Shown piece after piece: positions 3,000-55,278 of a DNA stretch of 64,000 nucleotides. Both the position numbers and the translations under genes were made by a program. This stretch comes from Leucoraja ocellata (lineage: Eukaryota), in the NCBI GenBank assembly GCA_036785375.1, contig JAWMAR010000008.1:806001-870000 (forward strand), written 5' to 3'. The stretch's first letter is position 1. Each line of letters opens with the position of its first letter. Below the pieces are notes generated by a model. The model saw nothing but the letters and a program-made list of their open reading frames with translations, had not been told where the DNA came from and did not search any database.

Positions 3000-3915
3000 T
3001 TGTTTTGGTAATCCAAAATAAATTTAAAAAAAATGATAGCATTTGTAAAGTTCCAACCTCATTTCACTTTAAATAAAAAAGAAAAAAAAGCTGAATCCTT
3101 TAAAGATACTCTTCAGATCTTGTCAGCCTTTTCTCTACCATTGCGGGGAGTGATAGCACCACTTGAGAATCTTCATCAGCAAGTCTTCTTCACATGAAGA
3201 AATGACAGCGAATAAAAAACTGTTATCAGCAAAGGAGTAAGGCTGAGATCAAAAGAGAGACTTCAAAGACTGCCTGGCAGCTCCTCACCAACAGTAGCAA
3301 TCACGGAGTCTTATATTTAGAGCAGAACTTTCTTGGACCATATCATTTCGCCATCAATGGTAGTGTTATTGTGAAGAAATAGAATTTCCACAGAACACTT
3401 GCAGTTGGGATAATGACCGGCAGCCTAGTCCAGTGGATATCATTGTGCTGATGAGATGTCGATCACTGCATTCTTCCAACCTTGACAAGATTTGAAAGCT
3501 CTTAGGGACTAATTGAGTTTAAAAAAAAAAAAAGATATTGCCATTTTGTGATCAGTATCTTACAAAATGTCGACTCCAGCCGTTGTGTCTGTTGGTGTTT
3601 ACTGGGCTTTCTTTGGCTTTGGCAATCAAATGGGTTAAGATCAATCCCTTTAAATGTGAAGAGTTTTGTTTTTTCCCAGGGCCAAATTTTCTTGTGTTTA
3701 TGGCAAACAGAGCATCATTGAAAAAGAAAAAAAGAGGAAAAAAAAAATGTTACCATACCTTAACAGCCAGAAAGAGCAGGACCAGTAAAGGAAGTAATGC
3801 TAGATAGTCATGCAGAGGAACTTTTCTCAGTGATACCGAGTGAAAGTCACTTCATCCCACAAAGTGGCTGAAAAGCCCACATCACATTGGTAGATTCTTT
3901 CCTATTTTGTGTTTC

Positions 3916-3996
3916 TCAAAATCCAAACACTCCCCCAACTGTGGATGCAATGACGACCCCCAGCACCACACAGCATATAATGATCATGATCTTCTT
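3916..3996 (-). CDS. STX1A: Canonical terminal transmembrane exon 10b: KKIMIIICCVVLGVVIASTVGGVFGF*
   Basis: Acceptor ggctacag, phase 0, TGA at 3916-3918. Matches the STX1A tail KKIMIIICCVILGIVIASTVGGIF including the Cys-Cys pair. Confidence 0.95.
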   Translation of the reverse strand, partial: KKIMIIICCVVLGVVIASTVGGVFGF

Positions 3997-6554
3997 CTGT
4001 AGCCCCCACATCCAAGCAGCATGACAGGAAGAAGAGGAGAAAGTGTTAGTTCTGTAACTTTATTTACATTTAAATGATTCAGGGTTTTTACAGAATGGAA
4101 GATGAAGCAATTCCAAAACAGATTATAACCTTCCCTTTACATCAGTAAATGTTCTTATTGATATCTTCTTGTTGCAGGCTCTTCATTTTAACAAACCATT
4201 AACATTTCAGAACCTACTTTGAAACATAAGTCCCTCACATTTCAAACCTCCCGCACACCACACATCTCTCGGTATAAATAGGACATCACATATTCCATCA
4301 CCACACTCCATCATATTCAGAAGCCATCCTCACATTAGACAACTGCTCACATTCGATGCAAACTACAACAACAATGCTCCCACTTCATATTTTAAATCTC
4401 TCTTCTTAACAAGTACCTGACATTAAACACTCGCTCATGACATTTTTTGTAGATTTAAGTAGCTGGAAACAGCTGGGGAGGTAGAGAGTATGATGTCTTC
4501 TTTCGACCTTTAATCTCAATGTAAAATGTTTACACATTATTGAAGTTAGTTAATAAGTTTTTGACTGGCATCTTACCCTAATCTACTTTTTGCTGTCAAA
4601 TTTGTATTTACAGTAATTGAAAAGCTTTGCAAAAGGAGCAGATTTTGGGAGAAAGAAGAGTATTCAAAATCCAATTTGGTTCAATCCTGAGTTGATAATA
4701 CAATACAATTTTAAGAGAGGGGTGTGATTCCAAGTGTGTGCACAAAGAGGTGTAAAGTGCATGTCCGCATGTAAGAATGTTATTTACTTTCAATTCACTT
4801 ACCATCAGCAGGCATTGAACTACATGAGGCTCGAAGGGCCGAATGGCCTACTCCTGCTAATTTCTATAGGGACACATTTTAGATTCCCTGTTGAGATGTC
4901 TGTTAAAATCTAGGCTATAATATAGACCTAAACTATCTTCTATTCCTTGTGGCCAATGGAATCATCAGCTTCTCCAACTTCTGTCAGTCTGTTATAGCAG
5001 CTCAACTATCCCATATAGTCCCTCACTCGTCACCTCACACACACCTTGTGAAAGGGTTGTAAACGTTTTAACAGTAGAGCGGCCATAAAATATACAATCA
5101 TGCAAAACAGCAAGCCACATCTTCAGAAATGGATGAGGAGAAAGTGAGAAATGTAATGCTGATACAAGAAGAACCGAGTAAAATCTAGAAAGGTACAACT
5201 CTCCTGTAGAACTATGGCACTATCCACATGTATTACATAGTGCTGTAGTTTTACAGCTGGATAATACTGTTCCAGTAACACATTCATTAGCAGTAGTGGA
5301 GACACGGGAGAGGATCCATGCTGTAACACAATACATTTCTCCCATGGCAATAAGGCTCATTTATTTTTGGGGAGAAATCGTATTACTTTTATTGCATAGT
5401 GTATTTATGTTTTTCCTTGGAGTCTATTATTATTCATTTTTTTGGGGTTAAATAACAGCACAGTTTGTATCACAGTTGATCATTTCTTTCAGATCAACGA
5501 ATTATTGTATTTTTATTATTTTGCCTTTGTCATTATTTCCTTTACAAGAATTGTTGTCAGTATTACATATGCCCATATATAATATGTGATAAAAGAAATG
5601 TTGACAATTTATAATTTTCCTTTAGTATGGTGAAAAACAAGCAGATAGAATGGAACTATAAACTGCAATGAATGATTTTATTTTGTGTTGTAAAATTATA
5701 TATTGAATATAATTTTGTGTTTGATATAAATACATTACCCTGTGCAATATTACTTAGAGAGACGGCATGATAAGCCTCAGTGTCCAGGATTGATATGGAA
5801 GGAAAAACAGTCAGGAGTATCACCTCTGATCACTACCCACAGACCTCTGCAGAAGTTCATGCAAGTACTCAGGAACTAAGGATGTAAAGCCAGACACAAT
5901 GACAAAAGGACACATATGTAGACCTATTCAAGAGATATTGAAAGGAAGTTCGCTTTCATTGTATACTTGCCTTTTTGGCAAGGGTTTATAATTTGTTGAA
6001 AAATACCAGATCTCTTAGACTTTTATTATAATCATAGCCAGAATCATTCTCAAAACCATTCAGACAACACCAATGTAAGTGTCGAGGTTAGGAGGAAAGC
6101 AAAACACTGCAGATGCAGGTTCTGATTGTTATTAAGTTATGCAGGGCTTATTGTGTTGCCATTTGTCAGTGTCGTAAATTTAGATCTATATTTTTTCCTG
6201 TAGAACTGTTCACGACTGCAAATTCATATATGGCAATATCCACACTCGTTCCTGCCTCTATACATGAACATGATCATGTTTTTATATGTTTTTCTTTACA
6301 TGTATCTGCATGTTTGATTATTTCCAAAATTCACATGGATCTGTGATGTCTTTTCCTGCTCTTTAATTTTTTTATTTTTTTTATGGGCTTAGTGGCTTGG
6401 ATTTCCCCAAGAAGATGGCAGGAATTTCTCATTGTAACTTATGATACTCATGCAAACATGAAACTTTGAAAAGGAATGCCTGTGGATTCATTCACTGTGA
6501 TGTTTGTACAGTTTCTTGGGGAGTTGATCAAGTGGGGAGGTTAGTACCTGACAA

Positions 6555-6885
6555 AGTATATTAAATTATGAAAGGCATAGATAGATTAGACAGTCAGAAC
6601 TTTTTTTTCCCATGAGGGAAATATCAAGTGCTAGAGGGCAAAGCATTAAGGTGAGTGGGGCAAAATTTAAAGATGTGTGGGGCAAGCTTTTACACAGAGG
6701 TAGGTGAGTGCCTGAAACCTCTGCTGATGGTCATGGTGGTGTCAGAAACGATAGTGGCATTTAAAAGGCTTTTGACAAGGCACATGGATATGCAGGGAGA
6801 TAGGAGTTGGCCTTGGCATCATGTTCAGTATAGACATTGTGGTCCGAAAGGGCTGTTCCTGTGCTGTACTGTTCTACGTTCTATT
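6555..6885 (+). mobile_element. CR1-type LINE 3' fragment (diverged)
   Basis: Typical 3' end: YKIMKGID-like coding remnant, tttacacagagg, tail ccgaaagggctgttcctgtgctgtactgttcta. Confidence 0.7.
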
Positions 6886-10138: not shown

Positions 10139-10922
10139 GCCGAAATTCTCAGTGTCCTTCTGAATGCTCCTTATCTACTTTGAGCTGCCTGTATGGGCTC
10201 AGAAATCTTATGTTGCATTTTTTTTTTCTCCATAGGAGGAGGATATATTAAGTCACTGAACGGGCATAACAAGATCTGGAAATTAAATGGGTGAGTTCTA
10301 TTCCAACATTCATTTAGTAAAATTTGCTTGGCCATTTGCAGAGAGAATGACGAATAGTTTGAGAGAGACATTGACAAAGGGAAAAGAGGGAGAAGAGTGG
10401 AAAGAAAGACTGAAAGACAGGATAGAAAAAAAGGTAAAGTAGTAAGATGGGAAATAGAGAGGAAGGGAATGGAGAGTAATTGATTTTAAAATTATTTATA
10501 AAAATAGAAAAATCGCTGCAGAACTTCACCTGAATTCATCGTGAACTAATAAGTTTGTAAAATCATGGATCATATTCTGCTAAGGCAAGATGCAAATCAA
10601 TAATGCTTCTTAAGATTATACACATTGAAAGTAAACTAAAATGATAAATAAAAGAGTGTTGCTTGAATCCTGATGTTGCTCTTCAGCTTATGGAGATGCC
10701 AAAGCAAGCGAGGTCCGCACACAAGAGGAGAAGTCAGACCTGCAAGAATCATGCTCTTGGTGCCTGTAAGCAGCCCCTCCAGGAAAATCCTAGGTGTTGG
10801 CAAAATGAAATGGAGGTGTCCAGGAATGATGAGTTGTCGCCTTTCCTTTTCACACAAGCATACCATGGAACAACAGCTCAGCTTTAGTCAGGATGATTCG
10901 GTGGGTCATGCACTTTCGAGCA

Positions 10923-11000
10923 TTAACTGAGAGACACAGCCAAAGCAATGATGATAATCAACAGTACTACTGCAATGCATATTCCTATAAAGATCATTTT
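10923..11000 (-). CDS. STX1A: Alternative transmembrane exon 10a: KMIFIGICIAVVLLIIIIALAVSLS*
   Basis: Strong acceptor gttttcttcccttcccacag with branch-point-like CTCAC about 28 nt upstream. Phase 0. Lys followed by a 24-aa uncharged tail anchor and TAA. Too short for the ORF track, translated by hand. Confidence 0.82.
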   Translation of the reverse strand, partial: KMIFIGICIAVVLLIIIIALAVSLS

Positions 11001-11037
11001 CTGTGGGAAGGGAAGAAAACAGTTTGGTGAGGCTCGG

Positions 11038-11043
11038 CATGCA
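11038..11043 (-). promoter_or_regulatory. Rbfox element UGCAUG next to the exon 10a branch point
   Basis: CATGCA on + at -43..-38 from the acceptor, 6 nt upstream of the CTCAC branch candidate (11027-11031). A second copy lies at 10907-10912, just after the stop. Confidence 0.6.
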
Positions 11044-11449
11044 AATACGCACATCACACAAAGAAACTGCAGTAGCAACTAAAACATTCAAAATGTGATG
11101 CAAATTTCTGGCTGACAACTGGGCATATGTTACACACTGGAATAATACATTCAAAGTCATGACAGGAGACCAAACATGTCCCCACATATCTATGGCTCAA
11201 GGTTGGATAATGTTGGATGGCCAATTGAATAATGAGATAAAACCATGGCAGCACATGTGATGGGACTGTGGCAGTGTGTTCAGAGCACTATAGTCCCCAC
11301 AGAGCATCTCGGAATTTTTTCCAATAAAGAACCTTTAGAATGAGGTCTTATGACGTTTACTTTCAGCATGAAGATTCAGACTGCTATTAGAGTGCTTGGG
11401 TGTCAAGTTAGGGAAAGTAGCTTTTAGTTAGGATGGAGTCCCATCTTGC

Positions 11450-11827
11450 TACTTTATAGAGATGTGTAAGATCATGAGATGAATAGATCGGGTAGATGCA
11501 CAAAGTCTCTTGCCCAGAGAAGGTGAATTGAGGACCAGGGGGCATAGGTTTAAGGTGAAGGGGAAACGATTTAATACGAATCTGAGGGGTAACTTTTTCA
11601 CACAAAGGGTGGTGGATGTATGGAACTAGCTGACAGAGGAGGTAGTTGAGACAGGGTCTATCCCAACATTTAAGAAACAGTTAGACAGGGACATGGATAT
11701 GACAGGTTTAGAGGGATATGGACCAAATGCTGGCAGGTGGGACTAGTGTAGCTGGGACATGTTGGCCGGTGTGGGCAAGTTGAGCCGAAGAGCCTGTTTC
11801 CACACTGTATCACTCTATGATTCTATA
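11450..11827 (+). mobile_element. CR1 LINE 3' end
   Basis: Coding remnant tttatagagatgtgtaagatcatgag, then ttttcacacaaagggtggtg and tail gccgaagagcctgtttccacactgtatcactctatgattcta. Confidence 0.8.
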
Positions 11828-12949
11828 ACTCAGTGACCAGTTGCAGACAGGCATCGCATAAGACTTCAGGGCTTTTATTACAAGCATGAGATCTGCTTCT
11901 CACAGATCAACAGCCAGCACCAATGGTTTGCCCAGACTATACAGTGGGTGGCAGAGCCAACACAGCAGAACATGCATGCTGCCCCCATGCTTCTCTCTGC
12001 CAGGGCATTGAGGTGGCAATCAGTTTTTCCGTTCAGCACATGGTCCATCTTAAGGCTCGGTTTGTCATAAATAGGCACAGCTTCAAATCAAAAACACATC
12101 TTAACACACAGCAGCCAAGCTCTCAAGACAGCATTTGGAAGAAGCATGGAATTCAAGCAGCAATCATCATGCCTTAGAATATCTGCAATTCAACAATAGT
12201 ACGGAGATAGTGTCAAAATGGACAAAAATAAACCAGTAGTAGAGGACAATGCACCTGTAACTTGCTTTGTGTATCTGTGCACAACTGCTTAGCTGTTAAG
12301 ATTGTCAGGGTGAAATGATGCCAGCATACAAGTCCAATGCTGGCGGTCAGTGCAGAAGCCACTGGTAGGATGTAGGATTTGGAGGAAGTGGGCTGTTGAC
12401 TTGCTAACACTATGGCATCGTCTAGGTGCTCATTTAAAAGGCAAAGCTTCCTCAGACATGATCTATCAGTCAGTTGCTTCTGTTCACGTTATGTGGTGTG
12501 ACAATATTGGCAACTGGTGCTATATGCCTGTAACTATTCTCTCCCAGAGGGAAAAAGGATGCCGTGATTACATAACTGCTAAATCCAGGTTTCAACCATC
12601 ATTTTAGATGCACTAATATTTTTCTGTTTAGTTTTAATGAGCATATATTTCTCCTTTTTCTGAATTTTGTTGCATTTCTTTTCAGCAACTATTATAAAAC
12701 TTTATAATTACTTACTTTTCCTGGAATAAATAGGAATTGAAGATGCTCAAACATCTCCTGGACTATTTGTCCATCATCACTATCCCCTTTATATATTTTA
12801 AATAATTGCAAGTCATGTTAAACATGCCTTTCTGACCTGCGTAGTATGACCGAATAATTAGGAAAATTCACTGTTTGCTGTTCTAATAAATCTTTCAACT
12901 AATTATGCTAAAAATATTAATAAATCGTCTTTAAGAATTTCATAAGAGT

Positions 12950-14082
12950 TTTGTGAGTTTCTAGAGGCGGTAACAAAGGAGAAGGATGAAGACAGGGATT
13001 TTACATGCCGTTTAAATTGACTTTTGTAAGGCATTTGATAAGGTCCCATGTGGTAGGCTATTGCAGAAGGTTAATGCACATGGGATTCATGGTGAGCTGG
13101 CTAATTGGATCCCAAATTGGGGGTGGTGGAAAGATGTTTTCCTGATTGGAACTCAGTGACCAGTGGTGTACCGCATGGGTCGATGCTGGGACCTTTGCTG
13201 TTTGTGATATATATTAATGACTAGTGTGTTTGTGTGGGAGGTATGATTAGTAGGATTGCGGAGACACAAAAATCGGTGGTGTTACGAATAGCAAGGAAGC
13301 TTGTCTAAGACTACACCAGGATTTAAATCAGATGAAAAGTTGGGAAGAGGATGAACGGTTGGAATTTAACCCCAACAAGTTTGAGGTAATGAATTTTGGG
13401 AAGTCAAGCAGGGGCAGATTAAATGTTTGGAGACTTAAGGAATACTGATAAACAGAGGTCTAGGGGTCCAAGTCCATAGTTCCCCAAAAATGGCACGCAG
13501 ATCAATAGGGTGGTGAATAATGCATAGAACATGAGGCTTCAGTGGCAGGGCATGGAATGTAAAAGTTTGGATGTTTTGTGGGAATTTTACAAGACATTGA
13601 TTAAGCTGCGTGAAGTACAGTATTTTTGCGCAGTTCCTATTGCCACACTTGAGGAAGCATGTGATTGCACTGGTGAGTGCAGAGGAGATTCATCAGGATT
13701 GGAGGACATTAGTTATGGGGAGAGAGTGAATAGACCAGGCTTGTTTTCCCTGAGCAAAGGAGACCAAAGGGTGACCTGATAGAAGCATATAAGATTCTGA
13801 GGGATACAGAGAGATTATGAGGATAGATAGTCCACAACCTTTTCTCATGGTAGGGCGTGAATTTTAAGGCGAGAAGATGGAGCTTTGAGATTGATATCTC
13901 AAACATGCTGCCATAGGAGGTGGTTGGATCAGATTAAATGACTACATTTAAGAGGCATTTAGACATAATTTAAATAAGCAAGCACAGAGTGATACAGTCC
14001 TAAAGTCAGATTAGTGTAAATCGCAAAAAGGTTGGCATGGATGTTTTGGCAGAAGGGCCTACGTTTATGCTGTGCAACTCTA
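12950..14082 (+). mobile_element. Degraded CR1 LINE ORF2 (RT and 3' end)
   Basis: Frameshifted RT motifs DFCKAFDKVP, SGVPHGSMLGPLLFVIYIND, (F)ADTKIGG, then a CR1 3' UTR. Confidence 0.85.
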
Positions 14083-16540
14083 AGAGTCTTTATATTCACA
14101 CCCTATACCATCAAGGCTGCAATGATGGGAAATAATAAATTCTCCGTGTCCTACTACCTGTATAACCTAGAGACTAATTCTGACATAGTTGTAAAAATTA
14201 ACCAGAAGTTTCTCTGCTTATTTTCATCAGCCCAATTAGGTGAATTTCTCCAAACCAACTAAAAAATAGATTTAATTTGAGAGGACTCCTAATCACCAAT
14301 TTCCACCCACAAAACCACATCTTATCCCTACACACATACATGCAAGCAGAGCTGATTAGCAGTGATTATGTTAGTTAAGGATGGCACTTCAATTTATGCT
14401 CATAGAAATCTTTTTTTTTCATTTTTAATAGATCACATTTTTAATTAAACTAACTACGAAGCTATTGGCCGCACACTGATGAAATTATTCAGTCAAGGCT
14501 ATAAAAGATATGTTTATTGACTGTATCAGATTCCCAGAGATGGAAGAGTGGACCCATATTAAAAATTTCTATTCTGATGAAAAATCCATTTTAAATGGTA
14601 TTAATAAAAATGCCCTAAAGTTATTTCTTGGTGTAGTTGATGAAAAAGAGATAAACGTTCTGTTCTACTGCCCAACTGCCCTTCATTGAAGATTTTAATT
14701 TAAACAGGCTTGCACAATGAACCACCAAAATTAAACCTTGGGCATGGTTGCCTGATTGCCTAACCCAAACTGATCAGTAATTTATGTTCTAACATATGTA
14801 ACAAACAATAGAATTTGGTTTTTAATCTAAAACAGGCTGCAGCTTATTAATTGTATTTGCTTATTTTGAATTGTTAATTAACAAGCTAGCATGTTTTTAG
14901 TAACAGAAGGCAGAACACTGGAAGAACTCAGTGGGTCATGCAACGTCCGTGGATGCAAGAGGGTAAGTAAATATCTCGGGTTGGGATTCTACATCAAATC
15001 CAGACCTGCCGGACTCTTTGAGCTGTTTATCGATCCAGATTCCAGCATCTGCCGTCTCCTTTGTCCTCTAACATTTCTTTATGTTTCAAACCCATTCCCC
15101 ATACAACAATTTTTTAATCAATTAATTAATGAATGATCAGGCTCAGCAGCATTCTTACCATTCAGTGACATTTGGTGAACTCACACCTATCAACAGAGTT
15201 TTATTTCGATTTGAAGTACATGTATCCTTGATTGCTTGCATTAGAATAAATGGCAATAATGCTACTGTAATAGATGTATGCGAATCAGAATGATTAAATT
15301 ATAATAAATACACTATGGATATACGGATTGTTGGAATAGATGAAAATATGATAAATTAGTGGCATTAATTGGATTGTATGAAAGCCAATTAAGTGAGGAC
15401 AAAACTGAGGTAGATTTTGCTAAGTGTAATCTTTAGCTTGATTGGCTCCAGATAGGTTGGGCTGGAATTAATATCAAGTAGCAGAATAAATGAGTTGAGA
15501 TTGATTTGAGGTAGATTATAGTGGACAGATTTTAATAGAAATGATTCAATTATACTGACTGCTTCTGCCCACATCTGCAGAATGAATATTTCTTATCTGT
15601 TGATTGTAAAACTTAAAAAATAGCCCAGACTAAGTGACCTAGTCCAAAACCAAACATAATTGAGCAGATTTTAAAATAAACCAGTCAGCTCTTGCCCAGG
15701 GCTAATGCAGGAAGTAAAACAATAATAATGCTGGTACAACAAGGAAGCTTAATCGAGGCACAAGTGAGATATGTGGGTTTTTTTGTTGTTGGATGGAGAC
15801 CTTGCCTTACACGAGGCCTTGACAACTGGTGAAAATGGGTGATACATACAGTGGCCAAGAAAATGGAAAATAAAACAGAAGTTGACAGCTGTATTGTGCT
15901 GACCTGTTATATACAGTTGGGCAAATAACATTGGATTGATTTTATTCAAAATGATTAAATTTAGATAGATTATAACAGAGTGAATTATATCAGGATAGGT
16001 TTATTTATAAGACACTGCAGCGGTATTGATTTGACAAGGACATATTAAATTCCCCGATGGGAGGGATGCAATAAATAAATACTACTGGACAAATTGCACC
16101 ATCTGAGATTAGATCCTACTCATTGATTTATATTGGAGATAGATTTAAACAGGCAATGCATCATTTAGGCATGATGGGTGTCAGGGGTTATGAGGAAAAG
16201 GCAGGAGAATGGGGTTAGGAGGGAGAGATACATAAGGAATATGTACAGGGAATAAATTGCACTGAATTAGATGCTGTTAATATTAGCAAAGTCTCAAGAT
16301 AGATGGCAAGAGGAAAATAATGGTTGATTGGTTTCTCCTCTGTTCTCCACCATGTCATTGTATGATTGTTAAGTCACTGTGTGCAAGTCCTGCCTCACAA
16401 TTCTTCCAATCCCTCTGTAAATGGAGCTGGCAAAATGTCACATTACATTAACTTGTATAAATGACAGATGGTGTATTGGCTGCTTTTGGGATCAGAGGAA
16501 TGAATGAAAATGGCCTTTCCAGACAATGGGCATGAAAGAC

Positions 16541-16756
16541 TGTGTCGGAAAGAACTGCAGATGTTGGTTTAAATCGAAGGTAGCCACAAAATGCTGGAGT
16601 ACCTCAGCGGGACAGGCAGCATCTCTGGAGAGAAGGAATGGGTGACGTTTCGGGTTGAGATCAGTCTGAAGAAGGGTCTTGACCCGAAACGTCACCCATT
16701 CCTTCTCTCCAGAGACGTTCCCTGTCCCGCTGAGCAACTCCAGCATTTTGTGTCTC
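16541..16756. repeat. Penelope-derived palindrome with intact hammerhead-like core (16666-16693, +)
   Basis: Near-perfect inverted arms around CTGAAGA-AGGGTCTTGACCC-GAAA-CGTC. Confidence 0.8.
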
Positions 16757-17697
16757 GGCATGAAAGACCCACTGAATGTCGTAAATGTCAATACTAAGAA
16801 GTGTACGCATCTCTCCCAGGGTCCCACACCAAAAATGTTGCTTGACCTCATATTATTCTTAACCGACACTCTTTAACATACATCACAGAATCGGCTGATG
16901 CATGTGTTCTCTGCATCACACACCACTCATCACGAACTATACCTCGCAGTGTGTTACTGTGCAATGTTGTGAATAGATTAACATATTCACAAAGGTAAGC
17001 TTACATCATCACCCAATTTTCATGTATCTATTTGAGATGTCAGATCACTTTCTTCACTTAGTTTTTACTTCTACTTTCATCAAAAAGATGTTCTGATTTT
17101 TACAATGTGGGACAAATAATCATTGCTGAAACATAGTTTCACCCTGGCAAACAACAGCAATGAGATGGGGAAAGTGATTGCAAGATTTATAGTGTACATT
17201 ATGATCTAAGTTTACATCTAAGTTATAGAGAGTTATATGCAGCACAGGATCGCATGCTCCTGGACGCTATTTTTAACGTGCCTCTAGAATATCTTGTTTC
17301 TGATTTATAAATGTTTGAGTTACACCTTTTAAATACGTGAAAAACTGTGCAGCAACATAATGCAATGTGTGCACTTCTGAACTGTCGAAATTTCCTGAGG
17401 TGAAGAAAGCAGTTACATTTCTGTGAAAGACTCACAGTCCCAGAGCCAATTATAATATGTGAAGAGTATAATTGTTATCACTGACAGTCATAAAGCCAGT
17501 CGTGTGTGCAGAATATATAACCCTCATAAATCTTATTACAGCATGGGCCCCCCTCGGTGGGAGGGAAGTCGACCAACTGATGGAGTAACAATTATAGACA
17601 CACACGTGCACAATGAGATGAATACAGGGTTGCAAAACTTTTTTTTTTTGTACGGTCTCTTGTGATGGAATTGGGGACGCACAGTGAGGTCATCACG

Positions 17698-17703
17698 CAT
17701 GCA
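17698..17703 (-). promoter_or_regulatory. Rbfox element UGCAUG just downstream of the exon 9b donor
   Basis: CATGCA on +, 25-30 nt into the intron after exon 9b. Downstream position is the enhancer position in the Rbfox RNA map. Confidence 0.6.
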
Positions 17704-17727
17704 GGGTTGTTGACGTGCACTACTCAC

Positions 17728-17838
17728 CCGGCGCGCTTTACTCTGGTACTTAACCGCCTTTTTTGTGTCAGACACTGCCCTCTCTACGTAGTCAACTGAG
17801 TGCTCGACGTTGTATTCGATCCTGTCTATCATCTCTCC
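17728..17838 (-). CDS. STX1A: Exon 9b, canonical syntaxin-1 C-terminal SNARE half: [37 protein letters not shown]
   Basis: Acceptor ctctttcctcgatgcccag, donor CGG|gtgagt. 111 bp, phase 0/0. Essentially identical to vertebrate syntaxin-1 residues 227-263. Confidence 0.96.
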
Positions 17839-17914
17839 CTGGGCATCGAGGAAAGAGCAGACACGCATGAAAGTAACAGAGGTGCTTCAGCGGCCATTGT
17901 CCCCAGTCACTTAC

Positions 17915-18025
17915 CCGCCGGCTGGTACTCTTAAAATTAACTGCTTTTTTTGTGTTCTCCTTCGCGTCGCCTATGTAATCCGTTGCATTAACAACGTTCC
18001 TCTCAATGCTGTTGACCACATCACC
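17915..18025 (-). CDS. STX1A: Alternative exon 9a, syntaxin-2-like C-terminal SNARE half: [37 protein letters not shown]
   Basis: Acceptor tctttctccttctgtttcag, donor CGG|gtaagt. 111 bp, phase 0/0, open frame. 16/37 aa identical to exon 9b, with heptad-layer positions identical or conservatively changed. Confidence 0.88.
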
Positions 18026-20982
18026 CTGAAACAGAAGGAGAAAGATTCACTCTTCCCGAAAAGCCTCTGGTATCCCACGGAATTATATCACAAGCATCAA
18101 ACTGAACTGAACATATCTGACAGCATTGTCCTTGAAGGGTGGGGGGCAATGTGAAGTGAAGCCTCAAAGAGGCCCCACACTGCCACCCTGCATGCTTTTC
18201 TGTTGCAAAGAGCCATTCCTCTATTCATGTGGGCACCACTAATGGTTTATTTGAATAGCAACACAGCATAAAAGCCTTACCCCACAATAACATAATGAGG
18301 CACTTATTCTCCCAAGGACTTACTCATCAGAACATCCAATAACTCCCACATAGAAACCTGATGAAATCAACCAAGGTATGGGTTGGTTTTGAGTCTCCAG
18401 ATAATCTTCTTGTTTACCAAATGGAGCATTTTCAGATTGTCATCTTTGCTGTTCAGGGATTTTAAACTGGAATGAATTTCCTCAGGGAATTTCACTGGAG
18501 AAGCAGGGGTCTCTGTAAATATTTCTTGTCCCTCTCCCCCCCCCCCCCCCCCAAATTTCCTCAGGTGCAAAGTTCATGGATAAAAAGCAAAGAGCTGTTT
18601 TGTTCAGCCTCCGTGAATCATCCTGAATACTTTGGGAATAATAGAGTTGCTTCCTGACATTCCACCTTCCCATCTGTCTCCCAGTGTCCCAAAACCCTTC
18701 TTGAATGCAGCCGACATATTTAAAATACCAATTTTGCCCTGACCACCAACACCAATGAAGCTTTTAGCTGCTGTTATCTGTTACTATGGGTGTCAGAGGT
18801 TACGGGGCGAAGGCAGGAGAGAGATAGATCAGTCAAGATCGAATGGCGGAGTAGACTTGATGGGCCAAATGGCCTAATTCTAAAGGTTCCTAACATGAGT
18901 CTATCTGCTTGAATAATCTACCCCTTTAGTCGACACCAGGCTTCCATAAGATCTCAGCACGCAGTGGGCGTGGATCCTGTCCAATGTTTGGCATTGGAGA
19001 TCATGGTGGGTTGATGTGAACTGAGGACAGGGTGGAATGGCAGGCTAAATTACCCTTGCTGATGTTGGCTATTTCTTATTCATGCACCAACTAAGATTCT
19101 GACTCCTGGTAGCTTGAGAATGAGCGCAGCAGTGAGATTGCTTCCTCAGCCTTGTCCCTGGACTCATCATATTCCAATAGTGAGTGATTATCTTTACCCA
19201 GCGGCTCTGGTGTGTCACAACAGGTGAGAGAGCAGTGGGGGGGGGGGGGGGTTCGTGTTCAGATAGGCCAAGAAGCCAAGCACATCTTACATTGCTGCAT
19301 CTTTGATTTTCTTTACACGCTTTACCACGTTTCAAGAGTCCAATATCATGCGTGTGGTTGGAAGTACATGCAATCATGCAAAGCTGCACTGTTACTGCAT
19401 GCTACAGAATGCGTTACCTGCAGGACTCCACCGTCCAGTCCAGGGTATTAGCAGCAGGAGAAAACAGAGGCTGTTACCAGCAATAGGAAGAATAGACTCG
19501 CAGTCAGAGCCTCACGGTGAATTGTGAATTAATGCAACAGAGCTCTTTGCAACTCTTATTAGATCTTTGCTCTTCTTGACTTTGATATAATTTCCCATAC
19601 GTCACAGTCCCTTCAGTCCACACATCAGATACCTCGTTTCTAACCTTTGGACAGAAGGTTGCTGAGATGGGGGCAGAAAGCGAGGGAAGGGAAGGAAGGG
19701 GGCAGACACTTGGAGTGAGAAGTCTTTGCAAGTGGTTAGATGGTGTGATCAACAAAAAGAAGTGGGATGGTGGGGGTCTGGCAGTGCAAGGACAGAGGCA
19801 GCTCCAGGAATGTCTTGGGGGCACTTTACGAAGCAAAGATTCTGCCGGGGAATCAGCTGACCTGCCCTTGGCTCTGTGGTAGCACGTTTGGTTCTACGTG
19901 AGGCATTATAGAGCTTCACCTATCCTCCGCCAAGGATCGTCTCAAACAATAAGCAGGAAGTTGATTGGCAACTTTCACAAAAAGGACAGTGCCTCAAATC
20001 AGAGACAAGGGGATGTGAAAGAAGAGGAGGGCTGGGAATGGGAAGAGGCACAGCTACATGGTACTGATCATTTTAAATAGCAGAATAAGGTGCATCCTTC
20101 CATTGTCCTTATTTTAGGAGACAGGGAGATTACTGCACCACTGAGAAGCAGGTGATATCTCTTGTTTGCAGGATTGATGGTGAGACCATGATGGAAGAAC
20201 TAATTCACTTCCCAGTCTAGTGTGGTGGATCAGTGGTTAGCTGGGTTGGATCAGTGAAAATCAAGTGTACAATGCCTCACATGACCAACGAGGCAAACTC
20301 CAGTGCATATAAAGTCATGCAGTCCAGGTTCCCTCAAGCCTTGTCATCTTGGGGTACTGGTAAAAGGAGACTACTTAGACTTGCCATTGGCAACTTTGGA
20401 GGGCATTAATGGTTATCAGAGAAACCTAGAAGGAAGGTGCAGCGTAGTCTAAAAACTAAACATATGGTCAATGGGTTACACGCCAGTAAATTACATTTTA
20501 GGTTGGCTTTCTGTGTATTTTTGAATGTTAAGTGTGTCAAGGAATATAGGCTTGGATAGGAGAGTGAACAGTCTTGGATAGGAGAGTGGACAGTCATATC
20601 CTATTGACAATTGGCACAGACTCACAGTGCTCTACGACCTACTCTTGCTTTAAGGGATTGCTCTTGGTCTTATGCTCTTGTTTTATAGGTTATGCTCTTA
20701 AACAGAGATTATTTTTTTCCGTGCAACACGCAGAATGCTTGAACACTAGTCAATGAGCAGAGACTTCAAAAAACTGAAGTGATAATTCTTCAACGCACAA
20801 TTCTTGTCGAATCAAAGTTGTTAAGGCAGTTAAAATCAGCAATAACAAGGAATCATAAAGTTTTGTTTTACACTCAATCCACGATGACAGAGTAAGATGG
20901 ACCTTTTCTCGGTTTAGATAACTGGTAATTCCTGCCACACAGATTCAAAATGAGACCTTTCTCTGTTTGATCCACATCTTAC

Positions 20983-21120
20983 CTGGCTTTCCACCAGCAT
21001 TGCCATGTCCATGAACATATCGTGCAGCTCGCGAATACAGTTCTCCAGTTTGATGATCTCATGATGTCGCGTTTCAATCTCATTTAGAGCCTGCTTCGTG
21101 ATGTTGGAATCCATTATGAT
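20983..21120 (-). CDS. STX1A: Syntaxin-1A-like coding exon (exon 8 equivalent, N-terminal half of Qa-SNARE to the zero-layer Gln): [46 protein letters not shown]
   Basis: Acceptor ctcttctcttag, donor CAG|gtaaga. 138 bp, phase 0/0. SGIIMDS and MFMDMAML fit STX1A better than STX1B (DIKMDS, MFVDMAML) as recalled. Confidence 0.95.
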
Positions 21121-21889
21121 CTAAGAGAAGAGAAGAGAAAACCATGCAGAATCAGCTGACCAGCCAGGCATCACAGAACATATATGGGTGTGAACAAATA
21201 CTACAAATCCTCGAAGTTACTTTCAATCTGTAGTCTGAACGGTTTAGAGGCAGACGGTGACAAAATCAGGGAAGGGAAAAAAAAACCCATAAACAGATTT
21301 TTGCCATTCCATCTGGACTTCCACATGTGGCATCGTCCTGGTACAGGGCATGGCATTTTTAAATCATTTGGCATCGGTTTCATTTTACATTGTTTTAGCT
21401 ACGTCTACATTCCAGGGTTAGACACTTTGTATTTTGCTCTGCAGTTCCTTGTATCTTCATTCCTAGAGTTAAAGGACTCGAAATTCTCCTTAAACTAGCA
21501 GTCTTGATGGGGTTAAAAAAGAAAAATGCTGGAGGAACTCGACAAGTCAGGCGGCACCTATGGAGGGAATGGACAGATGACATGTGGGTTCGGGACCCTT
21601 CTGATGATGTGTTTACTCTTGCTTTATCTTTAGGACTGTATATCTTTTCTCCTTACAAAGACTGCATCTCCATTCACATGTTTAAGAAAGAACTGCAGAT
21701 GCTGGAAAAATCGAAGGTAGACAAAAATGCTGGAGAAATCTCCATTCTCATTATCTATACTACTGGGTTTTCTGATTCTGCCAGAAATACCCTGCAACAC
21801 ATTCCATCAAACGACAAGGCAAAAGGTGAATCCTGTCAAATCCACTCATTACAGACAGTCTGGTTGGCGTAGGAACATCGTGGAAGGAT

Positions 21890-27798: not shown

Positions 27799-27872
27799 CC
27801 CTGATGTGAAGATAGCAGGATTCCCACTCTCCAGCATGTCTTCCAGCTCCTCATTTGTGGTCGTTCTTCCAG
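27799..27872 (-). CDS. STX1A: Syntaxin-1A-like coding exon (exon 7 equivalent, linker): (T)[24 protein letters not shown]
   Basis: Acceptor ttattctag, donor GGG|gtaagt. 74 bp, phase 1 to 0. Contains the linker [15 protein letters not shown] with the L165/E166 equivalent. Confidence 0.95.
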
Positions 27873-55169: not shown

Positions 55170-55278
55170 TGATTTCAAGTTGGCGTTGGATTCGTCCTTT
55201 GCAACGCTCCCTGTAGTCGGTCTGTGTGCCATTGTACTCAGACATCACTTCCACAAATTTACGAGACAGTGTAGAATG
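55170..55278 (-). CDS. STX1A: Syntaxin-1A-like coding exon (exon 6 equivalent, Hc helix): [36 protein letters not shown](T)
   Basis: Manual translation. Acceptor ttttgtttgcag, donor A|gtgagt. 109 bp, ends in phase 1 and joins the next exon as A+CT = Thr. Peptide is near-identical to syntaxin-1 residues ~120-156, including the Cys145 equivalent. Confidence 0.95.

Follow-up and report, generated by a model that had tools for sequence, protein, structure and literature searches.

Several of the splicing systems described so far resemble the one analyzed here. The mammalian STX3 gene yields two forms, STX3A and STX3B, that have exons 1 to 8 in common and differ in exons 9 and 10, which encode the transmembrane (TM) anchor together with the second SNARE half-motif, the B form being the more STX1A-like of the two (PMC11476516). 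STX3 is also listed among the Rbfox1 splicing targets in PMC10903086, where the exon is not stated. Calcitonin/CGRP exon 4, repressed by Fox-1/Fox-2, is a proximal terminal exon with one UGCAUG beside its branch point and another inside the exon, and the same review (PMC2777236) describes alpha-actinin NM/SM, FGFR2 IIIb/IIIc, and egl-15 5A/5B as pairs in which one factor governs two exons through position-dependent UGCAUG elements. The duplicated OGDH exons 4a and 4b have a branch point less than ~50 nt from the upstream donor (PMC7969005), and the Caenorhabditis elegans syntaxin gene unc-64 ends in two alternative TM exons, 8a and 8b, one of neuronal and one of non-neuronal use (PMC4946901).

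The window, i.e., the whole stretch of 64,000 nt analyzed here, carries on its minus strand what its sequence identifies as the STX1A orthologue of cartilaginous fish, with exons 9a and 9b and the terminal exons 10a and 10b (Table 1). Exon 9a used as a query retrieved STX1A-like proteins of Narcine and Carcharodon, both of which also match exons 6 to 8, and nearly all of the best 120 matches of Narcine STX1A P0001 are named STX1A. Exon 9b is the same as in many tetrapod and teleost STX1A models at 37/37 residues. Three Rbfox genes are present in this genome, with Fox-1_C matches above the cut-off on three contigs; lower-bound searches of the same genome found neither STX1B nor STX3. Our literature search found no paper on Rbfox control of the STX1A exon 9/10 choice.

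Table 1. Exons and candidate regulatory elements of the STX1A locus (positions within the window).
Feature	Positions	Strand	Remark
STX1A exon 6, constitutive	55170..55278	-	Translation matches Narcine STX1A P0001
STX1A exon 7, constitutive	27799..27872	-	tblastn match; splice sites read from sequence
TGCATG at -28 of constitutive exon 8 acceptor	21143..21148	-	Internal control
STX1A exon 8, first half of SNARE motif, constitutive	20983..21120	-	
GCATG group of 56 nt (four copies, two of them complete TGCATG), 1.3 kb before 9a	19347..19402	-	Possible distal Rbfox element
Exon 9a, 111 nt, STX2-like second half of SNARE motif	17915..18025	-	
9a-9b intron, 76 nt	17839..17914	-	Top-scoring branch-point prediction: A at +47 of 9a donor
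Exon 9b, 111 nt, STX1-type	17728..17838	-	
TGCACG at +9 of 9b donor (GCACG at +10)	17714..17719	-	Secondary Rbfox motif
TGCATG at +25..+30 of 9b donor, likely Rbfox enhancer	17698..17703	-	Also +26 in two teleost loci
TGCATG at -43..-38 of 10a acceptor, candidate silencer	11038..11043	-	Placement only
Predicted 10a acceptor branch point, A at -28	11027..11031	-	Consensus match only
Exon 10a, coding part and stop (10925-10923), proximal terminal TM exon	10923..11000	-	
TGCATG 11-16 nt past 10a stop, +89 from acceptor, candidate silencer within the exon or 3' UTR element	10907..10912	-	Placement only
Exon 10b (coding part with stop), the distal one of the two terminal TM exons, STX1-type	3916..3996	-	
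TGCATG 102 nt past 10b stop	3809..3814	-	

A preliminary description of this DNA had proposed that three TGCATG hexamers, one downstream of exon 9b and two around exon 10a, could allow Rbfox to coordinate a neuronal 9b+10b choice, the word neuronal resting on the STX1-type sequence of these exons. The three placements were found as described, on the minus strand and all in unique sequence, and an origin of the hexamers from repeats was rejected. TGCATG is not enriched window-wide, with 63 occurrences on both strands versus 54.5 ± 8.5 in shuffles (63 being reached by 17 of 100), split into 32 sense and 31 antisense. Around the four alternative exons, the presence of the hexamer in at least three of eight 100-nt flanking zones has a p of ~0.005 at the window rate, for zones chosen after the data were seen. 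The sites upstream of exon 8 and past the 10b stop had not been mentioned; the former is absent from the 63 nt examined of teleost locus L060, where the intron-8 GCATG group, the densest sense-strand GCATG cluster of the window, is not seen as a cluster either. Contig C49 carries the locus once more; this copy is ~98% identical and keeps all three hexamers, and is uninformative on conservation.

Conservation of the hexamer downstream of 9b, a check set in the preliminary description, was borne out in 2/2 teleost STX1A loci (L059 and L060), where TGCATG stands at +26 and is present four times within 150 nt after 9b. In a three-way alignment of the window with these two teleosts, the hexamer is, beyond the donor, the longest invariant block of the 9b intron flank. 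Taking the teleost background of 4 TGCATG in 8690 nt, a TGCATG start at most 3 nt from +25 is expected by chance at ~0.003 and four copies in 150 nt at ~1e-6. GCATG lies within +6 to +60 of the donor in 6/8 second tandem copies versus 0/38 single-copy exon 9 rows, a comparison in which the rows are not independent and the span was chosen afterwards. The two second copies without it are those of L073 and L075; in L074 the second tandem copy is not the 9b-like one, and the non-vertebrate-like L055 has GCATG at +18 and +49. The downstream motif is absent after the single exon 9 of the teleost STX1B-like L062 (116 nt of flank covered) and of the STX2-like gene of the same genome. L059 has a further TGCATG ahead of 9b, at a distance of 41 nt, where Rbfox would nominally repress. 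Chance matches as the source of all three hexamers, each strand of the window having roughly one TGCATG per 2 kb, would agree with the lack of window-wide or strand enrichment and with the uninformative retention of the 9b site in organism C (5 differences in 391 nt, 1.3% divergence); nevertheless, this reading appears very remote and is largely refuted for the 9b site by its matching position in both teleosts and by the four copies present in either of them. The 9b site stands beyond chance, despite the absence of enrichment in the window, because it is conserved in the teleosts, and we consider it likely, from these sequence comparisons, that the UGCAUG after 9b is a real Rbfox enhancer.

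That 9a and 9b exclude each other is probably due to a distinct mechanism, of steric nature, which was absent from the preliminary description. Branch points predicted by consensus fall less than 50 nt from the 9a donor in the window (+47) as in L059 (+32/+36) and L060 (+34), a distance that would sterically exclude 9a-9b joining. Teleost 9a-9b introns run for 206 to 213 nt without AG, with CTGAC at +32/+34. No spliced 9a-9b joint occurs in 2/2 RNA-type contig sets, both of which retain the 76-nt intron, and the joining of 9a to 9b in 9 of 120 protein models speaks against strict steric exclusion. RNA pairing of the docking-selector type was rejected, the flanks being without unusual folding (0/6 better than shuffles, z of -0.34 to 1.50) or complementarity (0/21 flank pairs above control stretches). 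A scan of viral contigs gave a single 9-residue match, dismissed as spurious.

Regarding exon 10a, the upstream TGCATG (11043-11038) lies ten bases ahead of the predicted branch A. Rbfox could act at 9b only, the 10a hexamers being incidental or mRNA-stability sites and the terminal exon being set by CELF or by polyadenylation strength. This would account for conservation being seen for the 9b site alone, for the like-placed site of exon 8 and the 3' UTR site of 10b, and for the four TGTG in the 150 nt before 10a; CELF proteins bind UG-rich RNA, decide which terminal exon worm unc-64 uses, and alter Stx2 isoforms (PMC4946901). Moreover, the nearest consensus polyadenylation hexamer is found ~0.9 kb past the 10a stop and is of the weaker ATTAAA type. 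It is opposed by the chance of ~0.0024, at the window rate, for two hexamers flanking one acceptor at 100 nt or less each, by that of ~0.04 (hand calculation) for hexamers in at least two of the seven other zones, and by the STX2-like TM exon of the same genome (the only TM exon found for that gene), which has neither 10a-type site. A role of Rbfox confined to 9b seems rather unlikely to us. In the tandem loci L055 and L063, the 100 nt before and the 100 nt after the first TM exon are free of GCATG.

The coupling of the two choices by one factor, as put forward in the preliminary description, stood in part. Run X15 showed 10b as the sole exit from 9b, and the 9a-rich run X20 showed 10a (contigs, informative on presence only). 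Of the 57 fish models that have an unambiguous exon 9 as well as a TM exon, 10 are mixed (7 9b+10a and 3 9a+10b), and neither 9a nor 10a was found among tetrapod-labelled hits (0/45). The 9b-10a junction in X20 and the mixed fish models do not fit strict coupling. In these runs, the terminal exon tracked the sample and not the exon 9 of the molecule, a pattern compatible with a shared factor regulating both choices and not with physical coupling. In the ~6% of raw RNA run X22 that was covered, 0 reads fell on the stretch, too little for a test.

The proposed mechanism comprises the following steps: (i) exons 8-9a, 9b-10a, and 9b-10b are joined, as seen in contigs of relatives; (ii) the 9b branch point, less than 50 nt from the 9a donor, would with good probability block 9a-9b splicing, a failed 9a/9b choice leaving the 76-nt intron retained with an early stop; (iii) Rbfox at +25, aided by the secondary motif at +9 (GCACG; PMC11874969), would probably tip the choice to 9b, as suggested by conservation and the known RNA map; and (iv) Rbfox at -43 and +89 of 10a could, a little more plausibly than not, hinder recognition of the branch point and acceptor as for calcitonin exon 4, a step suggested by placement, and such repression would push splicing on to 10b. 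The coupling would therefore be in trans and leaky, both choices reading the same cell state and neither depending on the other within a molecule. The best explanation as a whole would be that Rbfox, at the conserved 9b site and the two candidate 10a sites, favors 9b and 10b; for this full two-site model of 9b enhancement and 10a repression, we see the balance as even. Several observations count against this explanation: the same upstream placement of TGCATG before the constitutive exon 8, the hexamer ahead of 9b in L059, the second copies of L073 and L075 without the motif and the second copy of L074 that is not 9b-like, the GCATG-free flanks of the first TM exons of L055 and L063, the mixed models and those joining 9a to 9b, the control of syntaxin isoforms by CELF (PMC4946901), and the intron-8 group not being seen as a cluster in L060.

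Alternatively, Nova, CELF, or loss of PTB might make both choices, the conserved UGCAUG merely fine-tuning 9b. There are six copies of YCAY, the Nova motif, in the 150 nt that follow 9b, and seven past the 10a stop, versus one to four in the other zones, and PTB could bind the long pyrimidine tracts that precede 9b in teleosts. The involvement of other regulators would also suit STX3B, the mammalian equivalent of the b+b form, which is restricted to the retina and made in photoreceptors (PMC11476516), cells with no Rbfox1/3 and little Rbfox2 (10.1101/247601). However, the conserved block is the hexamer and not a YCAY run, with four copies in teleosts, and we hold such regulators to be an improbable cause of both choices. 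The presence of the b+b form STX3B in Rbfox-poor photoreceptors is an observation that counts against Rbfox favoring 9b and 10b as well.

In a 37-residue tree, one group (0.89) unites 9a of the window with 9a of bony fish, exon 9 of STX2, and the first copy of L055, and another (0.93) unites 9b of the window with the second copy of L055 (36/37 identical), a locus with a 58-nt intron. We tentatively propose that a single ancestral syntaxin, predating the vertebrate STX1/STX2 split, could have given rise to a neuronal as well as a housekeeping SNARE through an exon 9 and anchor switch driven by Rbfox; fish STX1A would have kept the switch, tetrapod STX1A would have fixed the b exons, and elasmobranch STX2 the a exons. 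If true, splicing controlled by a known neuronal factor would let one fish STX1A gene supply either a synaptic SNARE of STX1 type or a plasma-membrane SNARE resembling STX2. It would be a living model of how things stood before paralogues divided these jobs, and isoform data would be needed before fish stx1a expression is taken as neuronal.

Compared with mammalian STX3, the gene here is STX1A. With calcitonin exon 4, which the preliminary description had described correctly, exon 10a shares a proximal terminal position and a UGCAUG beside the branch point plus an exonic one, the spacing being -43 and +89 (past the stop) versus -34 and +45 (PMC2777236); the likeness is one of motif placement, with a predicted branch point. 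Duplicated exons and the ~50-nt limit are shared with OGDH, whose type of long AG-free pyrimidine tract is also present in the longer teleost 9a-9b introns, whereas the branch points here are predicted and the elasmobranch meets the limit by a short intron, not by a distant branch point. As to unc-64, likewise a syntaxin with two terminal TM exons, its regulator is UNC-75/CELF and its neuronal exon is proximal, while the STX1-type exon is distal here. In contrast to the alpha-actinin, FGFR2, and egl-15 pairs, Rbfox would have as its second target not the partner exon but a terminal exon lying 6.7 kb further downstream. Altogether, the regulatory logic (Rbfox map, steric exclusion, and calcitonin-type repression) is already known, and the gene is new for such regulation.

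By sequence similarity, the minus-strand gene of the window is STX1A, represented here by its 3' part, with two alternative copies of exon 9 set 76 nt apart and two alternative terminal exons. The exon 9a query matched STX1A-like proteins of Narcine (31/37 residues) and Carcharodon (27/37), and the 9a+10a combination is present in the Narcine model; these identities point to an elasmobranch gene, probably that of a batoid.

Exons of the STX1A gene in the window
Feature	Position	Strand	Description
exon 6	55278-55170	-	STX1A
exon 7	27872-27799	-	STX1A
exon 8	21120-20983	-	STX1A, constitutive
exon 9a	18025-17915	-	111 nt, first exon 9 copy
exon 9b	17838-17728	-	111 nt, second exon 9 copy
exon 10a	from 11000, stop 10925-10923	-	terminal transmembrane (TM) exon
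exon 10b	from 3996, stop 3918-3916	-	terminal transmembrane exon

A second copy of the locus on contig C49, ~98% identical to the window, is probably the other haplotype. Many loci of the assembly are present twice (contigs C8/C49, C125, C227, C314), and sequence searches of it did not find STX1B or STX3, which suggests retained haplotypes and missing regions. On contig C368, near 1470340-1470680, a gene that we take to be STX4-like (L013/L019) has its exon 8, 9 and TM parts in one frame and intronless, and is possibly a retrocopy; broken partial copies of an intronless, presumably STX19/11-like syntaxin (L006, L007, on C125) lie ~6 kb from intact ones. The introns of the window gene presumably carry scattered SINE- and LINE-like fragments, and two short intronic 22-nt tandem duplications lie at 6636-6685 and 20551-20595. 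The 10b acceptor (3997-4050, minus strand) is unusual: its CTAAC is at -50, the sequence ahead of the AG is rich in purines, and it is possibly weak or served by a distant branch point. In the 10a 3' UTR, a frame at 10639-10887 (minus strand) matches the Stegostoma STX1A models P0008/P0006 (42% identity over 72 residues, E 1e-13) in their non-TM tail, found joined to 9a as well as to 9b; either the 10a UTR is conserved from ray to shark or it contains a third, soluble terminal exon.

The preliminary description had placed three copies of the Rbfox hexamer TGCATG so that one factor could include 9b and skip 10a, and all three lie where it put them: one follows the 9b donor at +25, one precedes the 10a acceptor at -43, and one comes 11 nt past the 10a stop. 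Others occur at -28 of exon 8 and 102 nt past the 10b stop, and the secondary motif TGCACG lies at +9 of 9b. The hexamer is not enriched in the window (63 found vs 54.5 expected, at least 63 in 17 of 100 shuffles; 32 sense, 31 antisense). At the window rate, one 100-nt zone holds a hexamer with a chance of 0.049, and its occurrence in at least three of the eight zones flanking the alternative exons has a post hoc p of ~0.005. The densest GCATG cluster of the sense strand, four in 56 nt of unique sequence in intron 8 (19347-19402, minus strand; 1.3 kb upstream of 9a), could be a distal repressor of 9a.

The 9b site is conserved in two teleost loci. When metagenome contigs were scanned with 60 residues covering 9b as the query, 80 loci were retained. 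Two of these (L059, L060), judged to be teleost STX1A from 9a peptides like those of named teleost models, both have TGCATG at +26; L059 carries it again at +74, +115 and +126, and L060 at +63, +120 and +144. When the window and these two loci are aligned, the longest invariant stretch past the donor is the hexamer. The two contigs give a background of 4 copies per 8690 nt, at which the chance of a start no more than 3 nt from +25 is 0.003 and that of four copies in 150 nt ~1e-6; the two teleosts are not independent of one another. No TGCATG occurs in the 116 nt available for L062, an STX1B-like locus with a single exon 9, or near exon 9 or the TM exon of the STX2-like gene of the same genome.

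The survey was extended to 65 of the 80 loci (L055-L119), 15 distant intronless hits being excluded; removal of 13 duplicates, 6 loci without an intron past exon 9 and 1 ending after the second acceptor left 38 single-copy rows, seven tandem loci and the window. Within +6..+60 of the donor, a GCATG begins in 6/8 second copies vs 0/38 single copies (Fisher p 3e-6), a value that overstates the contrast because many single-copy rows are close kin, the interval was picked post hoc, short contigs could miss a second exon 9 copy, the motif is missing from L073 and L075, and in L074 it is the diverged copy that comes second. First copies have no GCATG within 150 nt; that of L059 has one motif at +180, 41 nt before 9b. 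Tandem copies 44-83 nt apart are found in several non-vertebrate loci (L063, L073, L074, L075, L058); exon 9 duplication may have recurred, the two copies of L073 being near-identical. In nine related non-vertebrate loci (L065, L078, L083, L084, L093, L096, L098, L099, L106), GCATG lies 31-77 nt past the TM-exon stop, mostly behind a possible 3' UTR donor and often with another 35-98 nt before the acceptor. In the spliced non-vertebrate syntaxin sequence L064, the 3' UTR contains another stretch resembling a TM exon (976-1200), so tandem terminal exons exist outside vertebrates.

Exon 9 peptides, 26 in all, were placed in a FastTree tree, which is weak because of its 37 columns, long branches and absence of STX3 and STX4 rows. 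The window 9a falls with its coelacanth, sturgeon and teleost counterparts (0.84), next with STX2 exon 9 (0.89) and after that with the first copy of L055 (0.89), and 9b falls with the second copy of L055, L062 and L097 (0.93). Exon 8 of L055 is near-equally similar to the window (36/46) and to non-vertebrate loci (34-37). Public fish gene models already show the dual-exon layout, which has also been described for STX3; the introduction of PMC10903086 names STX3 as an Rbfox1 splicing target, the exon not being given. A full-text search, whose coverage leaves out most subscription journals, found no paper on fish STX1A dual exons or Rbfox sites therein.

Joining of 9a to 9b would probably be prevented sterically. 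The sole yUnAy match of the 76-nt intron predicts a branch A at +47 from the 9a donor, and the limit proposed, according to PMC7969005, is a donor-to-branch distance below ~50 nt. Six non-vertebrate tandem introns measure 44-83 nt. The teleost introns measure 220 and 238 nt, run AG-free for 213 and 206 nt and consist of 77-78% pyrimidine; CTGAC lies at +32 and +34, and both introns have a CTAAC at -11. In both RNA-type runs of relatives (X15, X20) the intron is retained and no contig has a 9a-9b joint; retention brings a stop 64 nt ahead of the 9b donor, and the product would lack a TM anchor or be a decay target. Shark models ending just past 9a fit such a product. Nine models joining 9a to 9b argue against strict exclusion, and may be annotation errors.

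Four runs were compared over 17660-18050, X22 giving 0 reads from ~6% of the run and X8 being DNA. In X15, a 1958-nt contig has a loose end at the 9b donor matching the 10b start, and a 241-nt contig holds exon 8, 9a, the retained intron and 9b. In X20, where 9a reaches a depth of 36.9, a contig of 243 nt (depth 9.67) runs from the 9a end through the retained intron and 9b into 27 nt of 10a. The loose ends were matched by eye to the starts of 10a and 10b, with one mismatch each. Judging by 30-nt overlaps between contig ends, X15 would use an 8-9b path and X20 a 9a-10a path. Thus 10b tracks the 8-9b sample and 10a the 9a-rich one, in which 9b too leads to 10a, in a contrast between two samples of different organisms, of guessed RNA status and without tissue label, whose contigs indicate presence only. 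For the proposed coupling of the 9b and 10a choices, the two runs fit a shared trans factor and do not fit coupling within the molecule.

Gene models were counted as cluster representatives and not as abundances. Among the best 120 of 1290 protein hits, 45 bear a tetrapod label, assigned by hand from the source name; 9b is the sole exon 9 in every one of these, and 10a is absent from them. The other 75 (one mite, the remaining 74 being fish or cartilaginous fish) comprise 24 9a+10a, 23 9b+10b, 7 9b+10a and 3 9a+10b, the nine joining 9a to 9b, 3 hybrids and a further 6 of other types. Three cyprinid STX1A models (P0112, P0113, P0120) join a diverged 9b (26-28 of 37) to 10a, a hint that this lineage may have lost the neuronal form.

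Three Rbfox genes are present in the genome. Rbfox would quite likely enhance 9b from the candidate downstream hexamer, and repression of 10a through its candidate flanking hexamers would be somewhat favoured; with steric exclusion added, the whole model stands at an even chance, all these gradings being our own judgement. According to PMC11874969, downstream GCAUG mostly enhances and upstream GCAUG represses, many GCAUG being unbound. In favour of the candidate 10a silencers, the STX2-like TM exon has neither site. Against them, constitutive exon 8 has equal placement, the first TM exons of the tandem loci L055 and L063 have no GCATG within 100 nt on either side, and, according to PMC4946901, the worm unc-64 terminal exon is under CELF proteins and mouse Stx2 isoforms are altered by CELF. 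The strongest outside caution on the Rbfox model is that STX3B, the mammalian b+b form, is made in photoreceptors (PMC11476516), cells described in 10.1101/247601 as without Rbfox1/3. Also in favour of the 10a silencers, the two candidate hexamers of 10a flank one acceptor in a pattern similar to that of calcitonin exon 4, whose two elements, one at -34 and one at +45, block SF1 and U2AF65 (PMC2777236).
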